Shown in pieces: positions 1,921 through 18,070 of a stretch of DNA of 18,070 nucleotides; the first letter of the stretch is position 1, and the number at the start of each line of letters is the position of its first letter. Origin of the DNA: a virus (lineage: Duplodnaviria > Heunggongvirae > Uroviricota > Caudoviricetes); IMG/VR virus record IMGVR_UViG_2660238548_000002, positions 1-18,070 of that record; one strand, written 5' to 3'. The translations under genes were made by a program, and so were the position numbers. The notes under the pieces were generated by a model. It saw only the letters and a list, made by a program, of their open reading frames with translations. It searched no databases and was not told the origin of the DNA.

Positions 1921-1971
1921 CTTCTTTCTCCATTAGTGGGTCTGTTACGACCCACAGGTTAATAACAGGCG

Positions 1972-2964: not shown

Positions 2965-2972
2965 TTCCTCTC

Positions 2973-3668
2973 TTATTTGCCATAGAGCACTTCGGCCGCA
3001 CTACGCTGGCCTTCATTACCACCGGTGACCATGCCATCTTCAGACATCGCCTTTCCGATTTTCACGAACGTCTTGACCAGATCAGGGTGATTACCCAGTC
3101 CGGTGGTGTTCAGATATTCTTTGAGCTCAGGTGTCCCGAACTGGTCAAGCGCACGCTGCGCGGCGCTAAGGTTAGAAATCAACTTGTCGCCACCGATTTC
3201 TTTGTCAGCTTTTACATCAGCAGCCCACTGCTCGGTTGTTTTCTGCCAGGCTTCTGCCTGGCGCTGCTGAACACCTGCCAGAATCTTCGGATAAGCATCA
3301 ACCAGCTTTTGCGCTTGCTCGTTGGTCAGGTTTAGTTCTCGCGCCACCGGCTCGAATTCCTTCAACGCTTCTGTATCCAGCTCTACGCCTTCGGCAGCCT
3401 GAAACTCGTACTTCTCAGGCGCACCCTCTGGTTTATCGCCGTCCTTTTTTTCATCCAGCTTATCGTTTTCAGGCTTTTTGTCAGCAGCAGGTTTATCGCC
3501 ATCAGCAACAGGTTGTGGCTTATCACCTTCCTGTTGTGATGGATCACCAACTGGAGCAGGGTTATCACCTGCAGGCGCTGACGGTTCTGACGCAGCCGGA
3601 GCTGCTCCACCATCGACTGGTTGCTCATTGCAAAGACGGCTATACAGCAAACGCTCAAATAAATTCAT
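2973..3668 (-). CDS. Scaffolding protein (acidic, Pro/Ala/Asp/Lys-rich N-terminus, helical C-terminus)
   Basis: Low-complexity acidic composition and position between portal and capsid. ATG at 3668 has AGGAG 5 nt upstream; the listed ORF starts at GTG 3674. Confidence 0.65.
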   Translation of the reverse strand: MNLFERLLYSRLCNEQPVDGGAAPAASEPSAPAGDNPAPVGDPSQQEGDKPQPVADGDKPAADKKPENDKLDEKKDGDKPEGAPEKYEFQAAEGVELDTEALKEFEPVARELNLTNEQAQKLVDAYPKILAGVQQRQAEAWQKTTEQWAADVKADKEIGGDKLISNLSAAQRALDQFGTPELKEYLNTTGLGNHPDLVKTFVKIGKAMSEDGMVTGGNEGQRSAAEVLYGK

Positions 3669-3670
3669 GA

Positions 3671-3967
3671 TCACTCCTGTTCACTGGCCTCTTTGGCCAT
3701 CTTCAAATACTGTTCAGGGCAATGCGCCATAACGCGCTGAAACAGTTCCAGCGCCAGATTGCGTTGCCCCTCATTAAATGCCATTGCCATAGCGTCCATC
3801 GGCGAGATAGCGGAAAACACACGGCCTTTCTCCAGTACCGACCAGACAACCCGACGCCCCTGTTCACAGCTCATGACAAAGCGAATGTCATCAATTTCAC
3901 GCTGTGCCATGTCACGTTGCTTACGGGCGTTTTCTTCTTTCAGTTGATCGTCTTCGTAATCTGTCAT
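3671..3967 (-). CDS. Hypothetical small head-module protein (98 aa)
   Basis: ATG at 3967 overlaps the portal stop (ATGA); its own stop lies 2 nt before the scaffold ATG. Tightly coupled within the operon. Confidence 0.55.
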   Translation of the reverse strand: MTDYEDDQLKEENARKQRDMAQREIDDIRFVMSCEQGRRVVWSVLEKGRVFSAISPMDAMAMAFNEGQRNLALELFQRVMAHCPEQYLKMAKEASEQE

Positions 3968-5643
3968 TGTGATTGCCCACCCTGACCACTAACTGCATTC
4001 GCCATAGCTGACAAAACACTCGGATCCGAAGTTTTAGCTTCGCTTAGCGTCTTGGCCCCCTGTGCCGCCGCCATCCCCATCGCCATCATTTGTTGCTGCT
4101 GTTGCTGCTGTGCCCGTTGCTGGCGAGCCTGCTCAACCTGTTCCTGCGGAACAATGACGGTTGGAGACACTCCGGACATATCAGCGAATGCATCGATCGC
4201 CTGATCAACGTTGAGTTTGTCGAGAGCTTCTGGTTTCGCTTGCGCAAGTTGACCAATGAAGTTAACCGTGGACGCCAGACTGGACAGGCCGATAGACTTC
4301 TGCGCCTGAGCCATGACGGAAATGTATTCGACCTTCAGGGGCATGCCTTCCATCGCGTCAGGCGGTGGCGGCAGCATGTTTTTACGCACCATCATCGAGA
4401 AAGCGCGGTCAATGAGAGGATTAAGACATTCGTCGTTCAGACGCTCCAGAACCGGCCCCAACATCAGAAGTTTTTCTTCTTTCATTTCGATCACCGCTTC
4501 AACAGGCATCGAGCGGGTATTGATGTTCTGCAACATCATGAACAGATCGACAAAGTAGGCGCTGTTAATGATTTGACGAGTGTCCTGAATGTCTGCCACC
4601 AAATCTGCTGTACTGGGGTTAACCAGATAAGCAGGCCTGAAGCCATCCTGACCAGTAATCTGATCGATATACGTGATGTCGCCAGGAAGAAGGGAGGCGC
4701 GCTGATTCTTGAGGGAAGTCGGAGCAACCATCGGCGGATTGGTGGCTTTATCAATCAACTGCGACTTGCGCTTCTGGAGAAGCTGCAATGCCTTAACAGG
4801 TCCAAGCGCCAGCATGCCCGGGCATGATGATCCATAAACATCTTCACCGTTAACTTCCCAGCGCGGAGCCATAATTGGAAACTCATCGAATCCGGACTCA
4901 CGCAACAACTTGTCGTTATCGCCACCAACCTCGTAATAAACCGATTTGAATGGCTTGTTCTTGCTATCCAGCTTCGATGTATCGCGGTCAATGTTCGGGT
5001 AAACCGAATGCATCACGTCAATCCACTTCTCGTAGGTGCCGCTTTCCCACATGCTTTTTACGGATTCGCTGACGTTATTTAGCCCGAACTCCTGAACAAG
5101 CTGACGAACAGTCATAGAGAACTTGCGAAAACAGGTGTCAACACTGCCACGAGGTGAGTTAGCCAGGTAGTAACTGCCTATCGGGAATGGCATTGTGCGA
5201 ATGATGTCCTCATCATCCTCCAGTACCGCCATTGCACCGGTGCTGTATGTGCCGAGGCTTCCGTATAACTGCGGCAGCGACTGATAGAGATTCGACTTAT
5301 TGAACATATCGTTCATGCGGTTCTGCACCGCCTCAAGCCACAACTTAACAGGGCCATAATCCATCATTTCAGGATCTGGCGTAGCCAGGCGAAACCACGG
5401 ACGCGCAGGGCTTGTGATGCCTGACATCATGCCGCTGGCGAGAGTGCGCGCCGCCATAGTCCCGGTCGAATCAATAATGCGTGTATTGCGCCGATCGTTA
5501 CGGTTGGCCTCAGAAGTCAGAAAGCGGGAACCACGCGGGTTGATGTAATCACTCAACTCGCGCCAGTGCGGCTCGAACGACTGACGCTCGCTTTCAAGTT
5601 GTGCGAACTGTTTGTTCAATCGCTCTTTAGTTGTTTCCGCCAT
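3964..5643 (-). CDS. Portal protein, T7 gp8-like head-to-tail connector
   Basis: 559 aa. N-terminal region and the Gln/Ala/Met-rich C-terminal tail resemble recalled T7 gp8. Sits upstream of scaffold and capsid. Confidence 0.75.
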   Translation of the reverse strand: MAETTKERLNKQFAQLESERQSFEPHWRELSDYINPRGSRFLTSEANRNDRRNTRIIDSTGTMAARTLASGMMSGITSPARPWFRLATPDPEMMDYGPVKLWLEAVQNRMNDMFNKSNLYQSLPQLYGSLGTYSTGAMAVLEDDEDIIRTMPFPIGSYYLANSPRGSVDTCFRKFSMTVRQLVQEFGLNNVSESVKSMWESGTYEKWIDVMHSVYPNIDRDTSKLDSKNKPFKSVYYEVGGDNDKLLRESGFDEFPIMAPRWEVNGEDVYGSSCPGMLALGPVKALQLLQKRKSQLIDKATNPPMVAPTSLKNQRASLLPGDITYIDQITGQDGFRPAYLVNPSTADLVADIQDTRQIINSAYFVDLFMMLQNINTRSMPVEAVIEMKEEKLLMLGPVLERLNDECLNPLIDRAFSMMVRKNMLPPPPDAMEGMPLKVEYISVMAQAQKSIGLSSLASTVNFIGQLAQAKPEALDKLNVDQAIDAFADMSGVSPTVIVPQEQVEQARQQRAQQQQQQQMMAMGMAAAQGAKTLSEAKTSDPSVLSAMANAVSGQGGQSQ

Positions 5644-5657
5644 TTCAATGACTCCGG

Positions 5658-5864
5658 TTACTGACCAAGCAGCGTTTTACCGCTGGTATTAGCGGTTGAT
5701 GTGTCGCCCTGAGAACCGGTAAGAAGCGTAGAACTACGACCAGCAGCAGCGCGACGGCGACGTGTTTCTTCGTCGCGGGCATCAACAACGGCGGCATCCT
5801 GCTCCTGTGGTGCTGCCTGAACTTCTGGTGTTGCAGGCACTGATGGTGAGCTACCCATGCACAT
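5658..5864 (-). CDS. Small Ala/Gln/Arg-rich low-complexity protein (68 aa), possibly an internal virion protein
   Basis: ATG at 5864 with GGAG RBS; stop 12 nt before the portal RBS. Resemblance to T7 gp7.3 is from memory and weak. Confidence 0.4.
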   Translation of the reverse strand: MCMGSSPSVPATPEVQAAPQEQDAAVVDARDEETRRRRAAAGRSSTLLTGSQGDTSTANTSGKTLLGQ

Positions 5865-5932
5865 ATCAATGACTCCGTACGCAATTAAATTATTACCAAT
5901 TTAACCACAAATGATTTACCTATCGTAGATAG

Positions 5933-5969
5933 TTGACATTTAACGCACGAATTATTACCTTTCAGGTAA
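5933..5969 (+). promoter_or_regulatory. Candidate promoter (TTGACA at 5933..5938) with a perfect TTACC-N5-GGTAA palindrome at 5955..5969
   Basis: Perfect -35 hexamer, AT-rich -10 region, and a palindrome identical in form to those at the cI/cro region. Points toward the noncoding region and tRNA. Confidence 0.4.
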
Positions 5970-6029
5970 GCAAAGAGTTCATTCCGGTTATTAACCTGAC
6001 TAGCTTGTCGTTAAATTGAACAGGTGGGG

Positions 6030-6290
6030 TGAGATTTTATTTTGAGCAGTACGGCGTATGGCACATGCGCCGATAGCGGTCTGGATACGTTTAAGGGGCA
6101 CTCTCCCTTGCTCTGGCAAACGAACCAGGTAGCCGGGATGTGCAAGTCGAGCGGTTTTATTCCGCGCACGGGGATTCACCATCCCGGCGATTCGGTGTGA
6201 CACCTCGGAAGAGACGAGGGTACAACGATGAGAGCATTTATGGAACCGCGACAAAGTGTGGCGCCTTAACAGGCTAAGTGCTCTCAGCGT
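6030..6290 (+). ncRNA. Candidate structured noncoding RNA upstream of the tRNA (class unknown)
   Basis: No + strand ORF of 60 aa or more across 5885..6753. Contains a perfect 9-bp stem (GCCGGGATG 6131..6139 / CATCCCGGC 6180..6188) and several further hairpins. Confidence 0.25.
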
Positions 6291-6291
6291 T

Positions 6292-6368
6292 GTGGCATTA
6301 GCTCAGTTGGACAGAGCAACCGCCTTCTAAGCGGCTGGTCGCAGGTTCGAATCCTGCATGCCACGCCA
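6292..6368 (+). tRNA. tRNA-Arg (anticodon UCU), 77 nt with encoded CCA
   Basis: Manual fold: 7-bp acceptor stem GTGGCAT/ATGCCAC, D-arm GCTC...GAGC, anticodon loop CTTCTAA, T-arm GCAGG-TTCGAAT-CCTGC, discriminator G then CCA. Pair 27-43 is an A-C mismatch. Confidence 0.9.
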
Positions 6369-6411
6369 GAATCACGCCTAAGGACCGTGATGCCAGAAGT
6401 TCCAGGTGCTT

Positions 6412-6454
6412 GGCGGTGATGGTTTCCATTGAAGGACTATCACCGCCCTTTTTA
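6412..6454 (+). terminator. Intrinsic terminator downstream of the tRNA
   Basis: GGCGGTGAT ... ATCACCGCC stem followed by CTTTTTA. Confidence 0.5.
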
Positions 6455-6531
6455 CAGCAGGACGCCATTGCGATGACTTCATGCTGTAAACCCGTACAGC
6501 CACGGAAGGCATAACTCATTGCTTACAGTTC

Positions 6532-6555
6532 GCCCGGTTCACCGGGCATTTTTTT
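6532..6555 (+). terminator. Intrinsic terminator
   Basis: GCCCGG-TTCA-CCGGGC hairpin followed by ATTTTTTT. Confidence 0.7.
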
Positions 6556-6614
6556 AAGGTGTGAATCATGAAATACGAATTCGATGGATTTTAATGTCGT
6601 GACACGTCACAAAC

Positions 6615-6642
6615 AGCCAGCCGATAAGCTGGCTTTGTTTTA
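6615..6642 (+). terminator. Intrinsic terminator-like hairpin
   Basis: AGCCAGC-CGATAA-GCTGGCT followed by TTGTTTTA. Confidence 0.45.
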
Positions 6643-6697
6643 TCCTCATCAGAGGATATCAACGACATTATCCCCTCATAGGGATACGTTTTTCATA

Positions 6698-6726
6698 ATG
6701 ACCGAAGATTACCTTAAAGGTAGAAT
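6698..6726 (+). promoter_or_regulatory. Candidate promoter of the 246-aa gene (-10 TAGAAT at 6721..6726) overlapped by an operator-like palindrome TTACC-N5-GGTAG at 6709..6723
   Basis: -10 hexamer about 28 nt upstream of the ATG; a weak -35 (ATGACC) at 17-bp spacing; palindrome lies between them. Confidence 0.4.
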
Positions 6727-6753
6727 CAGAAAAAAACCTAAAAGGGCCTGGAC

Positions 6754-7494
6754 ATGCTTGAATCACTTAAAGAATACCTATCTTCAACCGTTAATACCGC
6801 TTCGCAAAGGGTCAGAAATCCAGTGTTTGGAGCGTTCGCACTGTCATGGTGCGCCTTTAACTGGAAGTCGATTTTATACTTACTCCTCAGCGACTCCAGC
6901 ATCATCGACAAGATCACCTACATTTCCAGCAATAGCAGTTGGAAAACGGTATTAGCATTCCCATGTGTTTCAGCAATAATCCTGTGCGGCGGCATGCCCT
7001 GGATCAACAACGTGATTTCAAAGTGGCAAGCCAAACCTCTTGATAATTACGATTCGATAGAGAACCACCGGAAGGCCAAGCGCATTCATCGCGCCACACG
7101 CCTGCAGCGCCTGAAGGCAAAGCACGATGTGACATACGACAAAGTTAAGACTGGCGCCGAAAAAGACATACAGGCTATGAAGGAAAGAATTACGGAGTCA
7201 CAGGCCAGGATGGGTGAGCTAACGTCGGAAAGAGATAGGCTCTCCGATAAGGTTTTGGAATTGAATAAGAAGCTGGAAAACATGCAATCAGTGGCTGCAG
7301 CGTTAAAGATTGAGGCAGAAAAGTCCGCCAGAATGCTTGAAGATAGGGAGGCCAAAATAAATAATCTCATACAAGAATTAAAGGAAAAAGAAAAGGAAAG
7401 TATCGTATTGCATATGGGCCATGAACCCTTGCGAAAAACATATACATCACAGGCTGAGAGAATGATTGCTGAAGCCGTGAAAAATAAGCAATAA
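6754..7494 (+). CDS. Orphan accessory protein: two predicted TM helices at the N-terminus, a basic linker and a long coiled-coil C-terminus (246 aa); function unknown
   Basis: Opposite strand to the late operon, visibly AT-rich, with many AGA/AGG Arg and ATA Ile codons. Its stop (7492..7494) lies 1 nt from the terL stop (7496..7498). Confidence 0.7.
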   Translation: MLESLKEYLSSTVNTASQRVRNPVFGAFALSWCAFNWKSILYLLLSDSSIIDKITYISSNSSWKTVLAFPCVSAIILCGGMPWINNVISKWQAKPLDNYDSIENHRKAKRIHRATRLQRLKAKHDVTYDKVKTGAEKDIQAMKERITESQARMGELTSERDRLSDKVLELNKKLENMQSVAAALKIEAEKSARMLEDREAKINNLIQELKEKEKESIVLHMGHEPLRKTYTSQAERMIAEAVKNKQ

Positions 7495-7495
7495 A

Positions 7496-8971
7496 TCACG
7501 CAAACGGGTCGTAATCTGTGATGGCCTTGCCTTGCTGGTTCTGCTGACCGGGAATTCGCAGGCGCTTCGACACAGGGAAAGCAAACGTCAGCAATAGCGC
7601 ATCGCCTTTCCCCGGCGAACGCCCAAGTCGTTCTTTGATATCTTCCTTCGGTTCGATAACGATTTTACCGTCCACGCGAACTTTGTACTCTGCCGTCGAC
7701 AGGTCGTCCGCTGTTTCCTGGTCATCCAGCATACCGCCCAGCCTCAGCCATGTCTTACATGAGTTGAACATCTCCCCACGCTTGTTGAGCATCTGCGGGT
7801 CAGTAGACGCGCCACCGAACGGAACAAGTTGCCATGTACGTCCCCAGCCATCACCGATTGACTTCAAACCGGTTCCGTAACCGAAGTCGATGAATACCGC
7901 GTCAGCCTGATACTTGTCTTCAAAGTCAGCGATGCGCTTCGCCATAATCAGATCGTCAGTGGTCTTGTTGCCAGTCCACAGCACCTTACTGTGCAGCCCC
8001 TGCCGCAGGTATATCACAGCGTCATCAACGCCGGAGTATGCCGGGTCAACGCCGATTATCACCGGAGCATGTGCCACCTGCGCAGCAGTTACCACCCGTT
8101 TCATTGCCTCGTCAGTAAGGCCGGTAGGGATAAACTGCAATTCAGATGCATCAGGGAATATGCCGCGCACACGGATTTTAACGAAGTCGCTGTCTTCCCC
8201 GTAGTCATCAACCCATTTCTGCAACTGCTGTTTGTTAGTGCCTTCCACCGTCCGGCTGTCAATCTGCGCAGTTTTCCAGCGGTGTTTATATTTGCGGAAA
8301 CATTCGCGGAAACGTCCGGTATTACGCGTCGGGTTTCCGAACGCCACCCAGATAATCTCAGTGTCTTCGTCCGTAAGCGCCCCCTCGGCAACTTCCCACA
8401 CCAGATCCGCAATGTTCGACGCTTCATCAAACACCACGATGATGCGTTTGCGCTCGTTGTGTAGTCCGGCGAATGCCTCGGTGTTGTGCTCAGACCAGGG
8501 GATTGCGTCAGCTCGCCACCGCTTGTCGTGCCCAGGATCATTGCTGTACATCGCGGTAGCGGTACAGGTAAACCAGTCTTTCGTGATAGCAAGGTTCGAC
8601 CACTTGATAATTTCCGGCCAGGTCTTCGTTCGTAGCTGGTTGTCGGTGTTGGCGGTCACCACGACCTTACAATCCTCGCAAGTGGACATGCCCCAGTTGA
8701 TCAGCATTGAGATGAATGCGGATTTACCAATACCGTGACCAGAAGCGCGTGCCAGCATAAGCGGCTGATAGCGCGTCTCTGGATTCTGCAGGTGATCACG
8801 TATCTCTCGGAACGCATCAGCCTGCCACTGACGTGGGCCGGTAGCATGTGCCAGTTCAGTCCCCTCTTCCCCCCAAGGGAACGCATAGAGGGCATAGCCA
8901 AGCGGATCGTGAGTGAACCCTGCAATATCCTCGATTAACTGCTCTTCAGGAGATAACGCTGTATCTGTCAC
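7496..8971 (-). CDS. Terminase large subunit
   Basis: 491 aa with Walker A-like SGHGIGKS near the N-terminus and a C-terminal nuclease-like region. GTG start overlaps the terS stop (GTGA); immediately downstream of terS. Confidence 0.85.
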   Translation of the reverse strand: MTDTALSPEEQLIEDIAGFTHDPLGYALYAFPWGEEGTELAHATGPRQWQADAFREIRDHLQNPETRYQPLMLARASGHGIGKSAFISMLINWGMSTCEDCKVVVTANTDNQLRTKTWPEIIKWSNLAITKDWFTCTATAMYSNDPGHDKRWRADAIPWSEHNTEAFAGLHNERKRIIVVFDEASNIADLVWEVAEGALTDEDTEIIWVAFGNPTRNTGRFRECFRKYKHRWKTAQIDSRTVEGTNKQQLQKWVDDYGEDSDFVKIRVRGIFPDASELQFIPTGLTDEAMKRVVTAAQVAHAPVIIGVDPAYSGVDDAVIYLRQGLHSKVLWTGNKTTDDLIMAKRIADFEDKYQADAVFIDFGYGTGLKSIGDGWGRTWQLVPFGGASTDPQMLNKRGEMFNSCKTWLRLGGMLDDQETADDLSTAEYKVRVDGKIVIEPKEDIKERLGRSPGKGDALLLTFAFPVSKRLRIPGQQNQQGKAITDYDPFA

Positions 8972-9564
8972 TGATTGCCATCCTGACGTTCTTTGAGTCG
9001 CTTCCTGGCTGCTGCTATGCGATCAGCAATTGTCACATTCACATTAACATCCAAGCGTTCTTTGAATGCGTTGACGTCGACGTGCTTACCAATCAGTTCG
9101 AGGTTCTTCACCTTGTCAGGCCATTTAATTTTTTTGAGGATTGTCTCTATCGAATCCTCGTTCATGTTCATGATGGTCGATGACAGATCAAAGCCGCTAA
9201 GCGTAGTGCGCCAGATTTTCGGCCACTCACGGATTGGTTTAAGGCTCCCATCGTCGTTGAGGATGTCGATCACGTCCATCTGGTCGATCTCCACTAGGCG
9301 CATGAGAACGTAATCAGCACTGACGCGCATTCGTTTGTTGCGCTCCTCCATCAACTCGGCAATCCGTTTTTGAATGCGTTCATCGCGCATCATGACACTG
9401 GCTTTAACTGCCGCTGTATTTGGGGAGAATCCTGCGTTAATCGCTGCCTGAGTCTGGTTTTCAGGCGTTTTGATGTATGACTGGCAATAAGCCTCCTGCA
9501 TTGCTGTGAGCGGCTTAAATTGCGTTGATTTGCGTTTATAGGTTTTAGGTTCAGCAGGCATCAT
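8968..9564 (-). CDS. Terminase small subunit
   Basis: Family-typical N-terminal LTAMQEAYCQSY...NAGFSPNTAAVKAS. Start placed at ATG 9564 (GGTGG upstream); the listed ORF's further extension (TITTTVTITT) runs through a terminator and repeats. Confidence 0.75.
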   Translation of the reverse strand: MMPAEPKTYKRKSTQFKPLTAMQEAYCQSYIKTPENQTQAAINAGFSPNTAAVKASVMMRDERIQKRIAELMEERNKRMRVSADYVLMRLVEIDQMDVIDILNDDGSLKPIREWPKIWRTTLSGFDLSSTIMNMNEDSIETILKKIKWPDKVKNLELIGKHVDVNAFKERLDVNVNVTIADRIAAARKRLKERQDGNQ

Positions 9565-9571
9565 AACCACC

Positions 9572-9602
9572 GTGGTAATAGTTACCGTTGTGGTAATAGT
9601 AA
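9572..9602. repeat. Two 13-bp direct repeats GTGGTAATAGT(T/A)A 18 bp apart, just upstream of the terS start
   Basis: Read directly from the sequence; the first copy forms the palindrome GGTAATAGTTACC. Candidate packaging or regulatory site. Confidence 0.5.
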
Positions 9603-9606
9603 CATG

Positions 9607-9633
9607 CAAAATAAAGCCGCCATAGTTGGCGGC
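9607..9633 (-). terminator. Intrinsic terminator immediately upstream of terS
   Basis: On the minus strand: GCCGCCA-ACTA-TGGCGGC followed by TTTATTTTG, in the 75-bp gap between the 70-aa gene and terS. Confidence 0.65.
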
Positions 9634-9638
9634 AGTAT

Positions 9639-9851
9639 TCAAAGTCCATCAAATTCATCGTAAAAACTCTCGTCAAGATACCCTTCCCATTTACCGCGAA
9701 TGAAAATTACATCCTCGCCGCAAGGGTGCTGACTGTCGATAACTATATCCCTCCTGGCGCAACCATACTTATGCATGAGAAATTTAACCTCTTTCGGAAA
9801 ATTTGCTGAGTTATCTCTCATATCTTCAAGGTCGTAGCGTATTTTTGGCAT
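9639..9851 (-). CDS. Hypothetical small protein (70 aa)
   Basis: ATG at 9851 with GAGGTG RBS directly upstream; the listed ORF extends to 9866. Confidence 0.5.
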   Translation of the reverse strand: MPKIRYDLEDMRDNSANFPKEVKFLMHKYGCARRDIVIDSQHPCGEDVIFIRGKWEGYLDESFYDEFDGL

Positions 9852-9867
9852 AACACCTCGTGACATG

Positions 9868-10206
9868 TCACACTATTAATTTCGTTTCATGCCAGCCTTT
9901 GGTCACCCAGCATTGCGAGTCACCATTACACGGGCATGAATTCACAGGAACTCTCTCGCCGCACTTACCGCAACGTTTTCTGCTGATCGATTTTATACGC
10001 CCGCGCACGCGTGCATCATCCTGGCGGATCAGTAACGCTATATACTCACCAAATTCGTAAGGCGCACGCCCGGGGCGACGTGTGGCACAGTTACGCTCCA
10101 GCATTTCAATTTCCTGAGCATCAAGCACAATCTCCAGCTTACGTACACCGGATTCAGCTTGTCTGGCTCTCTGAGCGGCTTTGCGCTCTGCTGCTGATTT
10201 AGCCAT
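9868..10206 (-). CDS. Hypothetical protein (112 aa) with a basic N-terminus and a C-terminal Cys4 zinc-ribbon (CGKCG...CPC)
   Basis: ATG at 10206, 2 nt after the upstream stop. Function unknown; a regulatory role is only a guess from position. Confidence 0.5.
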   Translation of the reverse strand: MAKSAAERKAAQRARQAESGVRKLEIVLDAQEIEMLERNCATRRPGRAPYEFGEYIALLIRQDDARVRGRIKSISRKRCGKCGERVPVNSCPCNGDSQCWVTKGWHETKLIV

Positions 10207-10480
10207 CAATATTCACCTTTATCGCGAACACCTTTACCGGTTTATCGCCGAAGTGGGGATGTGTGATTGTCTTGATTTCATATCCGTCATACGGAATATC
10301 AATTCTGCGGCTGGAATCGTCGCGCTTCGGATATCCCTTTGTGATAATCAGGCGGTCATACTCCCGGAACATAATTCGCTTATTCCAATAGTCATTACAC
10401 AGGCGATACTCCTCGGTTTTCTCGCCACGAATCATGGCATCGAAGTATTCACCTTTTACGGCAAGTTGCAGGTTAGCCAC
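10199..10480 (-). CDS. ASCH/DUF3850-like small protein (93 aa)
   Basis: GTG start with AGGAGG 7 nt upstream. N-terminal LQLAVKGEYFDAMIRGEKTEEYR resembles the recalled DUF3850/ASCH pattern. Confidence 0.45.
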   Translation of the reverse strand: MANLQLAVKGEYFDAMIRGEKTEEYRLCNDYWNKRIMFREYDRLIITKGYPKRDDSSRRIDIPYDGYEIKTITHPHFGDKPVKVFAIKVNIDG

Positions 10481-10757
10481 GACCTTCCTCCTTTGGCTTG
10501 TGAATTTGTATCGTCATGCCGCTTTGAGTGGTGACTACAATGACAGAACCAGGCTGAAGGCTGTTAAGATTGAATGCTTCGTAAAACGAATCCAATGCCA
10601 GTGCTTTTTTATTCTTTCGGTTCCACCAACGCCATCCCTTGCTACAGGCTACACTGACAATCCACTGCCCACTCCTGTAAGCCATATAAAACCAGATGAG
10701 CAAAACCTGAAGGAAGGCCATCCAGTCAATAATCGTATATTTCGCGAAGGAGTCCAT
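10473..10757 (-). CDS. Small membrane protein (94 aa) with one hydrophobic helix
   Basis: ATG at 10757 overlaps the upstream TGA (TGATG) and has a strong AGGAGGT RBS. Hydrophobic segment YTIIDWMAFLQVLLIWFYMAY. Confidence 0.55.
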   Translation of the reverse strand: MDSFAKYTIIDWMAFLQVLLIWFYMAYRSGQWIVSVACSKGWRWWNRKNKKALALDSFYEAFNLNSLQPGSVIVVTTQSGMTIQIHKPKEEGRG

Positions 10758-11329
10758 CAATTCACCTCCTGCGGCGGTTCTGGTAGCGGCATCCAGAACA
10801 AGACGTTCCCTAACCACGATAAAGTGCCGTCGCTCAACTCCACGTATTCCCCTTGTACCTGTCCTGCCATATACTCGCCGTGCTTTGAATAAATTAAAAT
10901 CCAATCATCTTGAGCGGGCATTCGCTCACTACAGCTTATCCAACCATCCGGAGTTACCGGAGAGTTGCCCGATAGCTCGTTCAACTTGTAAGTCTGGCTT
11001 ACAAGTTCGGCTTCCAATTCTGCTATGCGCTTCTCTGATGCTTCCAGCTCAACACGCAGCTTCCCTACCGTTAGCGCAATATCCTCGTTCTCCTGGTCGC
11101 GGCGTTTGATGTATTGCTGGTTTCTTTCCCGTTCATCCAGTAGTGCCAGCACGGTTTCTGGTCCGGCCAGAAGTTTGAAGGCGTTGAGCGCATCAATATC
11201 CACACCGTAATCTTTAAGTTCCTGTTCACTTAACAAATCATCATCAACTGGCAACATTAACAGGCGTTCCATTGCCGGAATTGCACGTTCTGCCGCCATT
11301 CGCAGTGCCTGATAGTCAATCTTGCTCAC
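10757..11329 (-). CDS. Ea22/Ead-like protein with a C-terminal DUF551-type domain (190 aa)
   Basis: GTG start with AAAGGAGG RBS. C-terminal W...FWMPLPEPP resembles the DUF551 signature common in lambdoid early regions. Confidence 0.5.
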   Translation of the reverse strand: MSKIDYQALRMAAERAIPAMERLLMLPVDDDLLSEQELKDYGVDIDALNAFKLLAGPETVLALLDERERNQQYIKRRDQENEDIALTVGKLRVELEASEKRIAELEAELVSQTYKLNELSGNSPVTPDGWISCSERMPAQDDWILIYSKHGEYMAGQVQGEYVELSDGTLSWLGNVLFWMPLPEPPQEVN

Positions 11330-11982
11330 TGGTTGCCTCCTTTTCGAAGCTCTGCGGCAAAGTCAGTGGCATGTTCACCGAGTAGTTTCCAGTTATCGCG
11401 TATATCAGATGCAAATGACTGTTCGGATTTTGAGTTACATTTCTGTGCAAACATCTCCAATCCCTGCGCCCGCACTTCAGCCAGGCATTTGCGAAACTCG
11501 GAAACGTACTGTTCGACGCTCATTCCCCAGCTAAGTGGACATTCATTGAATGTTTCGCCTTCGTGCTCTTCATCAGGTAGCTCTTTGGTAAAGAACTCAC
11601 GCTCAATGGCGTGGAGTGTGTCAGCAAAACGACGTAAGTTACTCAAACCTACCGTAATGGAGAATTCAGGAGCATCACATCCGACGCCCATCTGCTGATA
11701 AACGGCGGTTTTGAAGGCCTTCAGCGCCGCATTCTCCGCTGCCAGCTCCGAAAACTTCTCGTGTGCCAACTTAACAGCTGCATCAGCCTGCTTAATTGAC
11801 TCAATCGCTTTCTGCTGGTCTTCGGCCAGCGCATTAGCACGCACCAGTTGCACTTCCAGTTGCGTTGCCAAATCGCTGATCAGCTTTGCCACGCTGCGCA
11901 TATCAACGGCACCACATTCTGCTTTCAGTTCCGAAGCCATCTCATGCCCGGCGGTAACTAACCCTTTGATATTACAGTCCAT
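11326..11982 (-). CDS. Hypothetical coiled-coil protein (218 aa)
   Basis: ATG at 11982 with GAGGG RBS. No recognisable domain. Confidence 0.5.
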   Translation of the reverse strand: MDCNIKGLVTAGHEMASELKAECGAVDMRSVAKLISDLATQLEVQLVRANALAEDQQKAIESIKQADAAVKLAHEKFSELAAENAALKAFKTAVYQQMGVGCDAPEFSITVGLSNLRRFADTLHAIEREFFTKELPDEEHEGETFNECPLSWGMSVEQYVSEFRKCLAEVRAQGLEMFAQKCNSKSEQSFASDIRDNWKLLGEHATDFAAELRKGGNQ

Positions 11983-12027
11983 CTTTACCCTCGCTTATCC
12001 ACATAACTTATTGATTACATTGATAAC

Positions 12028-12055
12028 TAAAAAGATCGTCGATTCATGCCGATCT
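12028..12055 (-). terminator. Possible intrinsic terminator overlapping the HNH gene stop
   Basis: AGATCG ... CGATCT stem flanked by an A-tract and a T-tract; the 11-nt loop makes it weak. Confidence 0.3.
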
Positions 12056-12652
12056 ATTTTTCATCAGTGATTCATAAAACTTTTGCCACTTATGCCGACC
12101 GAAATTAGCCTTCGAGTTACAGCTCGAACAAAGGCAAATAAGGTTCTCCTGACGACAGTCTTGCTTGTCGTAATTGATGTGATGAGTTGTTAGCCTTTTG
12201 TCTGTTCCATCACAACCTGGGTTCTGACAAGTAAAACCATCTCGCTCAATAACCCTCTTGCTCGTTTCTCGGAAATCCCACGGATACGGCAATCTCGATA
12301 ATCCACCAGACCAGTTTGGATTTCCTTCCCCCTTCATCAGAGAAGAACGCATTATGTTGGAACACTGTTTCGAGCAGCATTTATGACGCTTCTCATGACT
12401 CAAGAAAACGGAGAACGAAGATCCGCATACGCAGCATATTTTTAATACTCGCTTTAGTTCCCGATTTACCGTCTTGCCTCGCTGTGAAATTCCTACACAC
12501 TGAAGTGAGCAGAACCTTGAAGATGAGTTGGCTCGCTTAACCTGATATTGCCTGCCACATACGGGGCAAACCTTTTCGATTTTCCCACCCTTCCAATTCG
12601 GGTTTTTATCACCGGATACAATCAATCCCGCAGCATTGGGCTTCTCGCTCAT
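12044..12652 (-). CDS. HNH homing-type endonuclease with duplicated NPNW(K/S)GG modules (202 aa)
   Basis: C-terminal HHINYDK...ENLICLCSSCN is an HNH motif; two NPNWxGG repeats. AT-rich. ATG at 12652 overlaps the upstream stop (ATGA). Confidence 0.8.
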   Translation of the reverse strand: MSEKPNAAGLIVSGDKNPNWKGGKIEKVCPVCGRQYQVKRANSSSRFCSLQCVGISQRGKTVNRELKRVLKICCVCGSSFSVFLSHEKRHKCCSKQCSNIMRSSLMKGEGNPNWSGGLSRLPYPWDFRETSKRVIERDGFTCQNPGCDGTDKRLTTHHINYDKQDCRQENLICLCSSCNSKANFGRHKWQKFYESLMKNRSA

Positions 12653-13002
12653 AGTTCCTCAACCTCCCATCCACCACCGAGCTTTTTAGGTTTTGGATAA
12701 GCAACCTGAAAGACAAACGGATAGCTGTCTGCCGCAACCTTCATCTTGACTCTCGCATCGTCAGTAAAGACTGACTTACTTCCCTTAACGTCCACCATCA
12801 CCAACTGCCCGTCAGCCAACATCACGGCAAAATCTACAGTCAGGAAGCAGTTGTCAGCCAGCCGCAGCTTGATACCCTCGAACCGATACCAGGCGACTTC
12901 CCCTGCACGTTTACGCTGCTCAAGGTGCTGGCAATACGCAGATTCTGTTTTGTTCATCTGGCCTGTTTTGAGTCGACCAAGAGCCTGTATCTGTTTTCTC
13001 AT
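12649..13002 (-). CDS. DUF1064-like phage protein (117 aa)
   Basis: Pattern ...YRFEGIKLRLADNCFLTVDFAVM...VDVKG resembles recalled DUF1064. Translationally coupled to the HNH gene. Confidence 0.45.
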   Translation of the reverse strand: MRKQIQALGRLKTGQMNKTESAYCQHLEQRKRAGEVAWYRFEGIKLRLADNCFLTVDFAVMLADGQLVMVDVKGSKSVFTDDARVKMKVAADSYPFVFQVAYPKPKKLGGGWEVEEL

Positions 13003-13005
13003 GAT

Positions 13006-13082
13006 TTACCTCTAAGGTAATTAAAAACCACATAAGGCACAAAATCAATAGATCTAAGAATATTTTGTTACCCATTGGGTAA
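13006..13082. promoter_or_regulatory. Two perfect TTACC-N5-GGTAA palindromes (13006..13020 and 13068..13082) upstream of the DUF1064 gene
   Basis: The first palindrome starts 4 nt upstream of the ATG and contains the RBS; the second lies about 60 bp further upstream. Confidence 0.5.
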
Positions 13083-13119
13083 TTATTGAGGCGTAAAAAA
13101 ATGCGCTATCGCGCTGGTA

Positions 13120-13920
13120 TTACTTGATAAATCCTGCTGCCTTTCCTCGCCTGTATTCCTCCATCAGCCACTGCGCCGGTGTTATTCCCCCCAGGGTGGC
13201 GGCGTTAGGCATGCACCCGAAACTTCGCCCTGGTGGATGGTAAACGTCTCTCCCTGTGTCCGGAGGTGTACTCATGGGTTCTGGCTTTGCCTGTATGCTG
13301 ATCACCGGATCGGGTATCTGCTGTCCGGAAGCCACCTTTTTCGCCCAATCATCGAGCAACCTGCGCGCGTGTTTCTCAACCTCAATCTCGCTAAGCTGGC
13401 GCTGATACATTGCACGGCGGGTATCACATACGACCCAGTACATAACCGGATGTCGCCACGGGAATCTTTCGGGACCACCAGGATATAAACTTTTTTCCTT
13501 GCTGTACCGGTGAAACTCCGCCATCACATCGTCAATGGTGACGCCAAGAACCATCTTGCTGTCTTTACACCACTTGATGAATTGCCCTGGCGACGGCCAG
13601 AACGGAGATTCACTGGCGCGGGCGTGGCGCATACCAGCAGAAACCTGTTCACGGGTTCGGATCCCCCCTTCGGCAAACGCAGCAATCCACTGCTGTTTTG
13701 CAGCAACTTCCTGCTCTGGCGTCTTCAGGTTGGTTACCACTGCCGCCGGAAACAGTTGTTTCAGCTGTTTGAAAAGGGCATCAACAAGCCTCTCTGCTGA
13801 CATGTTCACCACGTTGTCATTGTTGGTGTACTGATGCTCATAACCTGACATGCGAGAAAGGGCTTCTCCGTCACGGTTTTGTATCGCGGTAAAAACGTTG
13901 TTCACAAGAAATCCTCCCAT
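13120..13920 (-). CDS. Lambda P-like replication protein (helicase loader)
   Basis: Central QWIAAFAEGGIRTREQVSAGMRHAR...PFWPSPGQFIKWC aligns with the recalled lambda P region RRQWVLAFRENGITTMEQVNAGMRVAR...PFLPSPGQFVAWC. Strong GGAGGA RBS. Confidence 0.8.
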   Translation of the reverse strand: MGGFLVNNVFTAIQNRDGEALSRMSGYEHQYTNNDNVVNMSAERLVDALFKQLKQLFPAAVVTNLKTPEQEVAAKQQWIAAFAEGGIRTREQVSAGMRHARASESPFWPSPGQFIKWCKDSKMVLGVTIDDVMAEFHRYSKEKSLYPGGPERFPWRHPVMYWVVCDTRRAMYQRQLSEIEVEKHARRLLDDWAKKVASGQQIPDPVISIQAKPEPMSTPPDTGRDVYHPPGRSFGCMPNAATLGGITPAQWLMEEYRRGKAAGFIK

Positions 13921-14717
13921 GCTTCAGGGCTGTTCCAGTGCGGAACGTTGTTATCAGGTAATGTTGATTGCTTCTGTCTGCTAATCTGCAGCCGCCTTGC
14001 CAGCTTCTGCTCCCACTGTGCCTGATGGTATGCCTTACCCTCAGCCATCCAGTAAATTCTGAACTCTGCAAGTTCCTGTGCCGTTGGCAGACTGTCCAGG
14101 TAGATCCCCTGCAATGAGCTTTTCCGAAGAAAGTCATCTGATGGTTGCCATTGTTCATGCATGACAAATTTGCCTAATTGCCCTGGCCCACCAGGAGGAA
14201 CAAAGTTATTCATCACGGCGTTGTTTGCGCCGGGGTCATGAGGCACAGAATCCCCGGTTTTTGTTCTGCTCTCCCTCTCTTGGTTAAATGACTGGTTATA
14301 TGACTGGTTCTGGATCCCGTTTTTGGGATCATTCAACATCCCGTTTTTGGGATCATTCAACATCCCGTTTTTGGGTATATTCCCGTTTTCGGTAACATTA
14401 CCGTTTTCGGGTTCATTACCCCCTTCCCGGTTGCCTTTAATGTTCCCGTTTTTGGTTATATTAAGAGAGAAAACCCGCACTCTTTTCGTCGCTCCCTTTC
14501 TCTCTCCGGTATCTGAAATAAGCCCCATTTTCATGAGCGATATAAGCCCGGACTGCACGGTTTTTTTATTCAGGCAAGTGTCTTTAACGAGGCGTTCTAT
14601 GCTGGGGTAGCAGAGGTTATATTCATCGGCTCTGTCAGCCATCGAGAGCAGTATGAGCTTTAATGATGAGCTACCTGGGTCTGTCTCCCAGGCCCAATCT
14701 GTTGCATGTCTGCTCAT
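13902..14717 (-). CDS. Replication initiator, O-like (N-terminal HTH, repeat-encoded linker)
   Basis: Lies upstream of and overlapping the P-like gene; iterons are embedded in the coding sequence and encode the tandem KNGMLNDP repeat. Confidence 0.65.
   Translation of the reverse strand: MSRHATDWAWETDPGSSSLKLILLSMADRADEYNLCYPSIERLVKDTCLNKKTVQSGLISLMKMGLISDTGERKGATKRVRVFSLNITKNGNIKGNREGGNEPENGNVTENGNIPKNGMLNDPKNGMLNDPKNGIQNQSYNQSFNQERESRTKTGDSVPHDPGANNAVMNNFVPPGGPGQLGKFVMHEQWQPSDDFLRKSSLQGIYLDSLPTAQELAEFRIYWMAEGKAYHQAQWEQKLARRLQISRQKQSTLPDNNVPHWNSPEAWEDFL
14314..14460. repeat. Origin-type iterons: two perfect 24-bp tandem copies (ATCCCGTTTTTGGGATCATTCAAC) plus about 4 degenerate copies of the CCCGTTTT(T)GG core
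   Basis: Read directly from the sequence. Each unit contains an ATCCC/GGGAT inverted repeat; the array lies inside the O-like gene as in lambda ori. Confidence 0.75.
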
Positions 14718-14732
14718 GATTAATCTCCGCTA

Positions 14733-14933
14733 TCAGCTTGAATGTTGTGGGGAGGAATTAATCATGATCTGCTTAATCTCTGCCCTGATGCGACGGTTTG
14801 ATTCCATGGTGCACTCAACACAGTGTCCGTTGTAAACCCAGCGTTCACTGTCATGTCCGTGCTTACATGATTTTCCGGTGTAGTAGCGTTTAAGTCCGCG
14901 CTTTGCGGCATCAATACGTGTAATGATTTCCAT
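14733..14933 (-). CDS. Small Cys/His-rich zinc-finger protein (66 aa) in the cII position
   Basis: ATG at 14933; motif CKHGHD...HCVEC. Sits between the cro-like gene and the O-like gene; function unknown. Confidence 0.4.
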   Translation of the reverse strand: MEIITRIDAAKRGLKRYYTGKSCKHGHDSERWVYNGHCVECTMESNRRIRAEIKQIMINSSPQHSS

Positions 14934-15037
14934 GGTAAGCCCTGTTATTAGTATTGGGATTACGGTTATTTTGTGCTGACACAAAAAAAAGATCAACCAG
15001 ATTTGGTTTTTTATTACCTTTAAGGTGCGAATAGATA

Positions 15038-15061
15038 TGAAAAGACCGCAGGATGGCGGTC
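15038..15061 (-). terminator. tR1-like intrinsic terminator downstream of the cro-like gene
   Basis: On the minus strand: GACCGC-CATCCT-GCGGTC followed by TTTTC. Position matches lambda tR1. Confidence 0.4.
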
Positions 15062-15083
15062 TACAGAGGTTTGTGGCTGGATA

Positions 15084-15314
15084 TCATGAGTAGAAGAAGT
15101 ATGCCAGTTCTGCTTTTGAGCGCAGCCATTGTCTTGTTTTACAGGCTTTAAAAAGCCCATTCATCAATACTTTACCTGGCATTTTGCGCTTACCTGTTAA
15201 GTGAGTCTGGATATAGTGACTCGTCGTTCCGGCTTCCTGTGCGAAGGCTTCACGCTCATCCGGAGTAAGTGCAAGCCAGTGCTTTTTGAAATCGAAATGT
15301 CCGTTATCGCTCAT
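15084..15314 (-). CDS. Cro-like HTH regulator (76 aa)
   Basis: Divergent from the repressor gene and first gene of the rightward-equivalent operon. HTH-like segment LTPDEREAFAQEAGTTSHYIQ. Confidence 0.6.
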   Translation of the reverse strand: MSDNGHFDFKKHWLALTPDEREAFAQEAGTTSHYIQTHLTGKRKMPGKVLMNGLFKACKTRQWLRSKAELAYFFYS

Positions 15315-15350
15315 AGCTATTGCCTGATATTTATTTCAGATAATAAATAT

Positions 15351-15413
15351 TCACCCATAAGGTAACAAAAATCAAGGATAGTTACCTATGGGGTGCATTT
15401 ACCTGTTGGGTAA
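15351..15413. promoter_or_regulatory. Divergent immunity promoter region with three operator-like sites (15351..15365, 15382..15396, 15399..15413)
   Basis: Lies between the divergent cro-like and cI-like starts. Three TTACC-N5-GGTAA family palindromes, echoing an OR1-OR3 layout. Confidence 0.6.
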
Positions 15414-15468
15414 TATTGCTTTAAATTGAATCATCTACTGATTCATATATGAGGCGATTCTCCAGAAA

Positions 15469-16053
15469 ATGAAAAGTATCCAGGACGTCCGCAGGCAAAA
15501 TCTCAACGACTTGATCGACCGTGAATTCAATGGTGTTCAGACGCGGATGGCAGAAAAACTTGGAACTCAGGCAAATCTGGTAAACCGCTGGGCTCTTGGC
15601 AAGAAGGTTATCGGCGACCAGGTTGCGCGAAAAATTGAAGCTGCCGCCAATAAACCCCGTAACTGGCTTGATATCGATCGCTCGCTTTCTCAGGAGGGGT
15701 TTCAGCCTGTCGGCCCAAGCGACATTGGTCAGCTGGCGGCTCACAACCTGGAACGCTGGATGAGCGAAAGCCGCGACCTTTCAACACAGGGAAAACTTCA
15801 CCGCGCATCCGGCGTCGCCCAGGTGACAATCAGCCGCCTGTTAAACAATGAGGTCAGTGTTTCCATTTCCACCCTGGAGAATGTTGCATCCGCATTCGGG
15901 CGTCACGGATATGAACTACTGATTCACCCGCACGACCCTGCGACTATCAACTATGACCGCTCGCGCTACGCATTGTTACCCGAAACCGAGAAAGCAAAGA
16001 TCGAAAGTTACATTGAATTTGTCATCAACCAGAACGAAAAAAACAAACAATAA
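15469..16053 (+). CDS. CI-like repressor with two HTH (XRE-type) domains and no S24 peptidase domain (194 aa)
   Basis: Two HTH-like segments (residues about 20..60 and 95..150). Divergent from cro and followed by a strong terminator. Confidence 0.65.
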   Translation: MKSIQDVRRQNLNDLIDREFNGVQTRMAEKLGTQANLVNRWALGKKVIGDQVARKIEAAANKPRNWLDIDRSLSQEGFQPVGPSDIGQLAAHNLERWMSESRDLSTQGKLHRASGVAQVTISRLLNNEVSVSISTLENVASAFGRHGYELLIHPHDPATINYDRSRYALLPETEKAKIESYIEFVINQNEKNKQ

Positions 16054-16075
16054 AATCATATTTTTCAGTAAGTAA

Positions 16076-16097
16076 GCCGCCTTCTGGCGGCTTTTTT
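16076..16097 (+). terminator. Intrinsic terminator after the repressor gene
   Basis: GCCGCC-TTCT-GGCGGC followed by TTTTTT. Confidence 0.85.
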
Positions 16098-16110
16098 ATT
16101 GCCTGTTCAA

Positions 16111-16187
16111 TTACCTAATGGGTAATTTTTTTAACTCATATCTATTGACATCAAACCAGATACGCATAATTATTACCTAAACGGTAA
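16111..16187 (+). promoter_or_regulatory. pL-like early promoter (TTGACA at 16145..16150) flanked by two perfect TTACC-N5-GGTAA operators (16111..16125 and 16173..16187)
   Basis: Perfect -35 hexamer and AT-rich -10 region; one operator upstream and one overlapping the start region, upstream of the + strand early genes. Confidence 0.55.
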
Positions 16188-16206
16188 CAGACCGAGGTAA
16201 CAAGTT

Positions 16207-16359
16207 ATGCAGTGGAAAATCATCAACGGTTGGTACTGCGTTACTGCATGCGGATTCATGAGCTGGAAGTTCCGCACCTTACAGGAAGGCATTAAGTGGG
16301 CTTTCGTCAGCAAAGAAGCTCGCGATGTGGCCAACGATAACGAGATATGGGAGGGATGA
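16207..16359 (+). CDS. Small Trp/Cys-rich protein (50 aa), first ORF of the leftward-equivalent early operon
   Basis: ATG at 16207 with GAGG upstream; below the ORF-track size cutoff, translated by hand as MQWKIINGWYCVTACGFMSWKF... Confidence 0.35.
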   Translation: MQWKIINGWYCVTACGFMSWKFRTLQEGIKWAFVSKEARDVANDNEIWEG

Positions 16360-16361
16360 TA

Positions 16362-17557: not shown

Positions 17558-17566
17558 GGAGAAAAA

Positions 17567-17983: not shown

Positions 17984-18070
17984 ACTCAGGCTGCCAGATC
18001 ATTATTTCCGATGGAAGCATAATAAGCTTTTTCTGCTTCTGCCGGAGGAATATGGCCCAGCCTTTCCAGC
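17944..18070. repeat. Right copy of the ~127-bp inverted repeat (reverse complement of 1..127)
   Basis: Direct comparison with the window start; contains an RBS and ATG at 18052. Confidence 0.85.
18052..18070 (+). CDS. 5' fragment (MAQPFQ...) of an outward-reading gene homologous to the one at the window start
   Basis: ATG at 18052 preceded by GGAGG. Parallels the MTQPSQ start at 19..1 on the minus strand. Confidence 0.3.

Follow-up and report, generated by a model that had tools for sequence, protein, structure and literature searches.

The 18,070-nucleotide stretch of DNA that we analyzed (positions 1 to 18,070 of the virus record IMGVR_UViG_2660238548_000002, hereafter the window) is an epsilon15/phiV10-like (Uetakevirus) prophage whose late genes lie on the minus strand. 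We propose that in the interval 9563-9633, immediately upstream of terS, the early-right operon gives way to the packaging operon. This boundary would consist of an intrinsic terminator, a weak promoter and two interleaved operators of the prophage repressor, Rep, through which Rep directly controls terS; we put the probability of this reading at roughly 0.65. Most likely, terS-terL is served by a Rep-controlled promoter of its own and is shielded by the hairpin from early transcription, although the promoter activity, its start and the binding of Rep are what we infer from the sequence. The combination of a terminator and a repressor site before terS is already annotated in epsilon15, and the E. 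coli copy adds little that is new to it. The arrangement would nevertheless account for the lack of a Q-type late regulator in epsilon15-like prophages, a single repressor seeming to keep each lytic transcription unit under its direct control. Sequence matching this region occurs in roughly one third of the complete E. coli genomes.

The original prediction, made from the letters of the DNA alone, described two direct repeats between the terminator and the terS start codon, and suggested that they could be a regulator-binding site or a pac-type site. Direct repeats are indeed present (two 14-nt copies, 9572-9585 and 9590-9603, that differ at one position and start 18 bp apart), and they look like direct repeats because two 17-bp palindromic operators stand 18 bp apart. 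Operator O1 (9581..9597, ATTACCACAACGGTAAC, i.e., ATTACC-N5-GGTAAT) is an exact match to TTACC-N5-GGTAA and holds the core of the first "direct repeat", and operator O2 (9563..9579, ATTACCACGGTGGTTAT) has one mismatch and overlaps both the Shine-Dalgarno sequence GGTGG (9571-9567) and the first ATG. Allowing up to one mismatch, the window contains 10 copies of TTACC-N5-GGTAA where 0.28 are expected, and 0 of 200 shuffles reached 10. Two copies lie in the intergenic DNA on each side of rep (15351-15365, 15399-15413, 16111-16125 and 16173-16187), where they overlap the predicted promoters PR (TTGTTA-17-TATTAT) and PL (TTGACA-17-AATTAT); a mid-operon pair (13006..13082, i.e., 13006-13020 and 13068-13082) lies between the replication genes and the next gene; a single operator (5955..5969) precedes the portal/structural operon; and the remaining copies are the two before terS, O1 and O2, and an imperfect one in the accessory region. 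The rep gene (15469..16053, plus strand) encodes the prophage repressor, a homologue of the Rep protein of phage SPC32H, and the window Rep matches the SPC32H repressor structure (PDB 5D50) over its full length (E = 4e-42) with the recognition helix NLVNRW conserved. SPC32H carries the same operator sets, including the set upstream of terS. The regulator acting at the repeats is almost certainly the prophage repressor, and not an unknown late factor, judging from a motif that is the operator also flanking rep and from the label 'repressor' given to its epsilon15 homologue; the suggestion of a regulator-binding site thus fared well.

The suggestion of a pac-type site did not. If the repeats were a pac or TerS recognition site at which packaging starts, their position adjoining terS would be explained, as would the GenBank records of several relatives, which are linearised within 30-70 bp of the repeats, and the TerL of this group is of the headful, Sf6/P22-like kind (a note in the epsilon15 record). 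However, the motif is not unique to the terS region, and its copies in 18 kb are clustered around rep and at operon starts. In addition, the record starts differ from one another (window positions 9682, 9636, 9607 and 9561), which points to arbitrary linearisation, and the half-sites show the same symmetric conservation as those of the rep-adjacent operators. We therefore consider a packaging site at this position to be very improbable.

Conservation was assessed in 14 epsilon15-like relatives from different genera (sampled in E. coli, Salmonella, Enterobacter, Citrobacter, Klebsiella, Scandinavium, Superficieibacter, Kluyvera, Pseudescherichia and Buttiauxella), and base-level conservation upstream of terS was scored on 28 unique sequences of relatives. 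In these 28 sequences the half-sites of O1 and O2 are invariant and the N5 spacer is free to change, a substitution pattern that is the signature of a dimer-bound site. For example, E. coli copies with identical TerS proteins differ only in the spacers, in a base between the operators and in the first ATG, and the change between the operators breaks the "direct repeat". Homologues of Rep and Cro, together with the same site layout, are found in all 12 relatives with enough flanking sequence. We also observe that the same half-sites, TTACC/GGTAA, are present in all the relatives found (L007-L016, L004-L006 and L302), i.e., in some ten genera of enterobacteria and with Rep identities as low as 41%. 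For a temperate phage group, such an immunity specificity is unusually uniform, and the differences may lie in the antirepressors instead.

Since operators imply a promoter, terS would be expected to have one of its own, and a promoter-like block (TGnTAsTAT) is located between the hairpin and the terS start codon, with its bases TG, TA and TAT invariant in 28 of the 28 unique sequences. There are two ways to place a promoter here. In model A, the candidate is an extended -10 element, TGtTACTAT (9596..9604, minus strand), with O1 over the start site. In model B, the candidate -10 hexamer is AACTAT (9578..9583, minus strand; AATTAT or TAAAAT in relatives), located between O1 and O2, and is preceded by the -35-like ATGTTA (9605-9600, minus strand), which shares bases with the model A element; in relatives the -35-like sequence is (A/G)TGnTA, and the spacer of 16-18 nt contains O1. 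The register of the -10 hexamer to the operator in model B is that of PL, where AATTAT is fused to an ATTACC operator (AATTAT-TACC), and also that of the mid-operon promoter of L016. The block formed by TG..TA.TAT, O1 and O2 is also kept in the 3 of 14 relatives (BUCT554, L007 and L009) in which the hairpin is missing and another gene lies upstream, and in these three the homology begins just upstream of the TG. The mid-operon sites are built in the same manner: the order in the window is a small terminator, an operator, TTGATT-17-TTTAAT, an operator and an ATG; in L015 it is a small terminator, TTGCAA, the same tandem 18-bp operator pair and then an ATG; and in the Buttiauxella relative L016 the same 18-bp operator pair lies inside a consensus TTGACA-17-AATTAT promoter. 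As far as the layout of these predicted elements goes, "terminator, repressor-controlled promoter, gene" is a repeated design in this phage group.

The same operators could alternatively act as roadblocks with no local promoter, where Rep bound to O1 and O2 in the lysogen stops leaky transcription from upstream and so backs the terminator. Such a function would suit operators that follow directly on terminators at several unit boundaries, deep within the path of rightward transcription, and it resembles the genome-wide repressor sites of other temperate phages, such as the gp71 stoperators of mycobacteriophage L5. However, the sites are symmetric palindromes that keep the same register to -10-like hexamers as is seen at PL, the invariant TG..TA.TAT upstream of O1 would have no role in a pure roadblock, and the identical tandem pair in L016 is embedded in a consensus promoter. 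A roadblock without a promoter is accordingly an improbable account of these sites.

The strong hairpin and U-tract that the original prediction placed at 9607..9633 on the minus strand were also found. The stem-loop (9616..9633, minus strand, GCCGCCAACTATGGCGGC, i.e., GCCGCC-AACTAT-GGCGGC) ends the early-right operon and is followed by a T tract (9608..9615, minus strand, TTTATTTT), which is kept as TTT(G/A)TTTT in relatives. The stem has 7 bp including 6 G-C pairs, the loop has 4 nt and UUUAUUUU follows, with a predicted folding energy of -13.8 kcal/mol; the 106-nt region containing the hairpin folds at z = -3.7 relative to shuffles. The TGA of the last early gene (9641-9639) lies 5 nt before the hairpin, and the distance from this TGA to the ATG at 9564/9561 is 74-77 nt, which agrees with the predicted gap of about 75 bp before terS. 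Hairpin and T tract are kept in 11 of the 14 relatives, from different genera, with few changes in the stem, all of which preserve pairing (C-G to U-G and G-C to G-U in L016), and the epsilon15 record lists the homologous stem_loop (39646-39672) as a rho-independent terminator. The window holds no excess of terminator-like sites overall (25, against 18.6 expected), and it is therefore conservation that makes the case for this particular one; a covariation test of the hairpin is uninformative, since the stem barely varies. The A/G position in the T tract seemed at first to covary with the base 5′ of the stem, but we rejected this, as the alignment shows no such pair. By sequence criteria, the hairpin and T tract are a good, conserved intrinsic terminator closing the early operon.

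From this terminator the original prediction concluded that late gene expression probably needs read-through or antitermination. In that case no promoter would follow the hairpin, terS and the late genes would be transcribed from the early-right promoters by read-through or antitermination, and the repeats would only modulate this; a ribosome terminating 4-5 nt upstream, or the 112-amino-acid (aa) protein encoded upstream of terS, might help. Several observations fit: the terminator is strong and conserved, the T tract and the first ATG (9564) are only 43 bp apart, with weak promoter candidates, a stop codon stands exactly 4-5 nt before the stem in 8 of the 14 relatives in three different open reading frame (ORF) contexts, the insertion of a UvsY.-1 homologue in the window has kept the reading frame into the stop before the hairpin, and the conserved, DNA-binding-like gene for the 112-aa protein lies with a putative site just upstream. 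However, Rep operators before terS would be redundant if terS depended only on PR and the mid-operon promoter, both of which already bear operators, and the 3 relatives without the hairpin retain the TG..TA.TAT-O1-O2 block. Masking by a ribosome is not general, as epsilon15, Tyrion, L012 and L015 have about 30 nt between the last stop and the hairpin, and a helper function of the 112-aa protein has against it that the distance from its putative site, GTGAC-N2-GTCAC, to terS varies from about 100 to 300 nt, and that phage N15 has both a homologue of this protein and a Q-type activator. The need for read-through or antitermination is weakened by a conserved promoter-like block downstream of the hairpin that persists where the hairpin does not, and we regard this explanation as unlikely. 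The late promoter downstream of the hairpin that would speak against it is found here in silico, as a candidate block, and not as a mapped promoter.

In the Rep-controlled arrangement that we favor, the hairpin and U tract would terminate transcripts from PR and from the mid-operon promoter, at an efficiency that is itself predicted, and directly downstream there would be a weak sigma-70 promoter without a good -35, using either TGtTACTAT as an extended -10 or ATGTTA-16-AACTAT. The tandem operators O1 and O2 would be interleaved with this terS promoter, and in the lysogen Rep on both would shut terS-terL off directly. Once Rep is inactivated, the operator-bearing promoters, i.e., PL, PR, mid-operon, terS and portal, would open together, and a Q-like factor would then not be required. 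In SPC32H, inactivation of Rep is reportedly brought about by a LexA-controlled antirepressor. Paired operators fit such a repressor, because SPC32H-type Rep is reported (PMC9638917) to bind palindromic sites as a tetramer. In agreement with the original prediction, no Q-like antiterminator or lysis gene was found with Pfam and PHROGs among the early-right ORFs upstream of terS. The lack of lysis genes upstream of terS is normal architecture in this group and not a gap, because the lysis cassette lies far downstream, after the tailspike and conversion genes (in epsilon15, about 25 kb downstream of terS).

Several points weigh against direct control of terS by Rep. The operator sequence rests on the depositor's annotation of epsilon15 and on the motif analysis made here, and the late sites could instead be bound by Cro or some other conserved protein. 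Both promoter candidates fall below the threshold of a consensus scan (TG-n-TACTAT in model A matches at 4/6, and ATGTTA-16-AACTAT in model B at 3/6 + 3/6), and with such scores an activator might be needed. The hairpin shows no compensatory double changes, its stem hardly varying. Finally, the stop codon 4-5 nt before the hairpin in those 8 relatives suggests that partial, translation-dependent read-through may contribute to terS transcription, since a terminating ribosome at this distance would, with the footprint that ribosomes have, cover the 5′ arm of the stem; of all the observations, this one now favors the original prediction most.

Whether the interval is regulatory also depends on where terS begins. 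We place the start of terS (Terminase_2; 8968..9561, minus strand) at the second ATG, 9561 (MPAEPK...). If terS instead began at TTG 9642, as annotated by PGAP, the hairpin and repeats would encode the first 27 residues of TerS, which would then have 224 aa; no stop interrupts the frame from 9642 on, and RefSeq annotates a 675-nt coding sequence (CDS) in E. coli. However, in-frame stops are present 6-42 nt upstream of the ATG in six relatives, the four phage records of epsilon15, Tyrion, BUCT554 and SPC32H are annotated with MPAEPK starts, and the Pfam and PHROG matches leave out the first 28 residues of the long TerS ORF, i.e., the family profiles align from residue 29 only. In addition, the Shine-Dalgarno sequence GGTGG lies 5 nt before ATG 9561, and the first ATG (9564) is mutated in some E. 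coli variants. We give a coding function next to no credence; by these comparisons, the hairpin/operator region is non-coding and terS starts at ATG 9561. The PGAP/RefSeq TerS (window 8968-9642, minus strand; L001 12960-13634), with its 224 aa from TTG 9642, is over-extended by 27 codons. For this prophage family the RefSeq model therefore engulfs the terminator and both operators, hiding a regulatory region in a CDS.

Two small proteins, one of 70 aa and one a 112-aa Cys4 zinc-ribbon protein, were originally described as occupying the position upstream of terS in place of a Q-like antiterminator or lysis genes. The 70-aa ORF (9639..9851, minus strand) is present, but in content it is an accessory homologue of T4 UvsY.-1 that continues, in the same frame, into the final 6 codons (DEFDGL*) of a resident micro-ORF: it has 46% identity to T4 UvsY.-1 over residues 1-64, and its final six residues (DEFDGL) are outside that family. 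It is absent from the 13 other relatives compared, and DNA homology with the phiV10-type phages resumes at 9659. On this comparative evidence the 70-aa ORF is an accessory insertion, and not a late-gene regulator. UvsY.-1 is otherwise matched almost only in T4-type (T-even-like) phages, and here it occurs in a temperate podovirus prophage; among phage records, a close copy of the 70-aa ORF is found in PH444 only.

The resident micro-ORF is of wider occurrence. It has 8 codons (MHDEFDGF, MRDEFDGF, MTDEFDGF or MLDEFDGF) and ends 4 nt before the hairpin upstream of terS in relatives of the phiV10 type as well as in four further genera; in the window its remnant (9639-9659, minus strand) consists of the last codons, fused to the UvsY.-1 insertion, and a second copy, MKYEFDGF (about 6555-6581, plus strand), lies 4 nt before the second of two inverted repeats described below. 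A degenerate scan of IMG/VR for M-x-DEFDGF-stop, a pattern of about 40 bits for which approximately zero chance matches are expected, returned at least 120 stretches (L304-L423), with 57 unique contexts among the matches listed and with unrelated flanks, and the matches use all synonymous codon variants. Among the 57 contexts in the matches listed, a terminator-like hairpin starts within 30 nt of the micro-ORF stop in about half, and at 4-5 nt in 23. The micro-ORF could encode a leader-like peptide or a small effector. Nothing relevant to DEFDGF was found in the literature; if confirmed, this would be a conserved phage micro-ORF placed next to terminators.

The gene for the 112-aa protein (9868..10206, minus strand) belongs to phrog_536, which includes epsilon15 gp49 and N15 gp46 and carries the PHROGs label 'transcriptional regulator'. 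The protein has a ribbon-helix-helix (RHH)-like N-terminal half and a C-terminal CxxC...C...C. Its Cys4 character is borne out, as C79, C82, C91 and C99 are shared without exception by homologues ranging from N15 to Vibrio phages; the zinc ribbon is not confirmed by structure, the AlphaFold model being of low confidence (pLDDT 63), and searches of Pfam and PDB by sequence gave no match. The gene is present in all 14 relatives, where it is the last or among the last genes before terS, and homologues are also found in N15, ZF40, P2-like Yersinia phages and Vibrio phages. Because N15 has its homologue alongside its own Q-type late activator, the 112-aa protein is not simply a substitute for Q. 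We also considered it as an activator of the terS promoter acting from a fixed position, and rejected this, as the distance from its repeat to terS is variable (100-300 nt).

This repeat is a 12-bp inverted repeat, GTGACATGTCAC (9860..9871), which overlaps the stop codon of the 112-aa gene and is a putative cognate site; the second copy in the window, GTGACACGTCAC (6599-6610), lies 4 nt before a plus-strand terminator (6615-6634). Epsilon15 (L004) contains three copies of GTGAC-N2-GTCAC (2142, 19517 and 39612), all beside intrinsic terminators, i.e., one at the gp49 stop and 22 nt before the terminator, one 2 nt before the terminator that follows gp18, and a third between terL and an antisense gene, 5 nt before the terminator of the antisense gene. 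Further copies are present in N15 (L099; 3767) and ZF40 (L101; 5125, 7622 and 14944). A scan that started from the motif TGTGACATGTCACA found the protein gene in 32 of 120 stretches that were short, too short to judge, and was replaced by a test that started from the protein, with 80 loci chosen by protein homology only (63 unique proteins, 898 kb in total) and including N15-like proteins with 33-35% identity to the epsilon15-type ones. These 80 loci contain 110 copies of GTGAC-N2-GTCAC, compared with 0.86 expected from length and a mean of 0.3 in first-order Markov simulations, and at least one copy is present in 62 of the 63 unique loci. The repeat overlaps the stop of the gene itself in 37 of 63, with the TGA within the left half-site in 34 of these, N15 gp46 (GTGACTGGTCAC) being one stop-overlapping case; the central dinucleotide varies by lineage and the half-sites are constant. 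This association makes it likely that GTGAC-N2-GTCAC is the cognate DNA site of the 112-aa family. A reading of GTGACATGTCAC as a CRP-like site was discarded on spacing (N4, against the N6 of the generally known consensus), and no paper with this sequence was found in the literature.

A speculative extension would be that the 112-aa protein binds these repeats and, with the micro-ORF whose stop lies 4 nt from the repeat or hairpin, tunes termination or read-through at three operon ends, among them the transcription that enters terS. We hold this second layer of control to be doubtful; the three ends would be those after the early-right operon, after terL and after gp18, and in its minimal form the idea would make phrog_536 a new family of DNA-binding proteins whose cognate site is defined. 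If confirmed, the repeat would be the DNA site recognised by a phage protein family that is widespread and as yet uncharacterised. Both side findings, the phrog_536-linked repeat and the micro-ORF by terminators, may be new.

The 1.7 kb around the terS boundary was matched in 1959 of 5426 complete E. coli genomes, the best matches having 98% identity, and the same 1.7 kb also matches the phages phiV10, TL-2011b, ZX5, SPN1S, epsilon15 and Tyrion, i.e., the epsilon15/phiV10 group. In the closest E. coli genome, the element adjoins guaA, behind an integrase. From high to low coordinates, the genes of the window are rep, a cro-like gene (15314-15084, minus strand), the replication genes, a DUF1064-family gene (Holliday junction resolvase in PHROGs), an HNH endonuclease gene, Ead/Ea22, DUF4752 and ASCH genes, the 112-aa gene, the 70-aa ORF, terS and terL; after terL there is an antisense accessory region with a tRNA-Arg, and then the portal, protease and capsid genes. 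A terminator-like hairpin (15043-15062, minus strand; AGACCGCCATCCTGCGGTCT then TTTC) directly follows the cro-like gene, in a position that resembles lambda tR1, but the window shows no recognisable N-like antiterminator. A tandem duplicate of a 20-nt terminator-like hairpin (TGGGATCATTCAACATCCCG then TTTTTGGG, 24 bp apart) occupies 14324-14367 on the plus strand and opposes the replication-initiator gene (13902-14717) on the other strand.

The accessory region (6292-7494, plus strand) lies antisense between terL and the portal operon, and its gene content differs among relatives. It contains the tRNA-Arg(TCT) gene (6292-6368, plus strand), three terminator-like hairpins (6412-6447, 6532-6547 and 6615-6634, all plus strand), a promoter-like site (6698-6726) that overlaps the imperfect Rep operator (6709-6723), and a 246-aa gene (6754-7494, plus strand; phrog_4780, unknown function) that converges on terL. 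The tRNA-Arg was the sole match in an Rfam scan of the window, with no RNA family over the region upstream of terS.

Nothing relevant to late regulation in this genus was found in the literature. Among known systems comparable to the boundary, epsilon15 (AY150271.2) has a near-identical sequence at the homologous position (GGCCGCCgactatGGCGGCtttgtttt then TGTTACTATTACCAAAACGGTAAT) and the same gene order, i.e., the gp49 homologue, terminator, operator and terS. Its record lists a protein_bind feature, 'repressor; lysogeny', at 12-27 upstream of terS, which corresponds to window 9596-9581 (O1), and further 'repressor' sites mid-operon (35906-35922), at portal (2931-2947), at the tailspike gene and to the left of rep. 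Epsilon15 differs from the window in having neither the 70-aa ORF nor the micro-ORF, its last stop being about 30 nt from the hairpin, and its record marks only O1, not O2, and no promoter. The Rep/Ant system of SPC32H (PDB 5D50/5D4Z; Kim & Ryu 2013 and Kim et al. 2016, as summarised in PMC9638917) has a full-length homologue of the window Rep with a conserved recognition helix and the same operator sets; the identity between the two Rep proteins is, however, only about 45%, and the antirepressor of the present prophage is outside the window.

Among small phage regulators, the zinc-finger late activators P2 Ogr and P4 Delta resemble the 112-aa protein in being small Cys4 proteins encoded near the early/late boundary. 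They differ in that they have no sequence similarity to it in Pfam, PDB and PHROG searches, and in that the repeat linked to the 112-aa protein is found at gene and operon ends, at a variable distance to terS, and not at about -55 of late promoters. In lambda and P22, where Q acts at pR′/tR′ before the lysis and terminase genes, an intrinsic terminator likewise lies between the early and the packaging genes. In contrast, the window has no Q homologue and no upstream lysis genes, which here come after the tailspike gene, terS directly follows the terminator, and the operators and promoter-like block are located downstream of the terminator, whereas in lambda and P22 a promoter with a Q-binding element is located upstream of it. 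Finally, the stoperators of L5 gp71 share with the window the use of a single prophage repressor whose sites extend far beyond the immunity region and lie at, or inside, lytic transcription units. The L5 sites, however, are asymmetric, orientation-dependent and numerous, and act on elongation, whereas the sites in the window are symmetric, few, paired and in promoter register.

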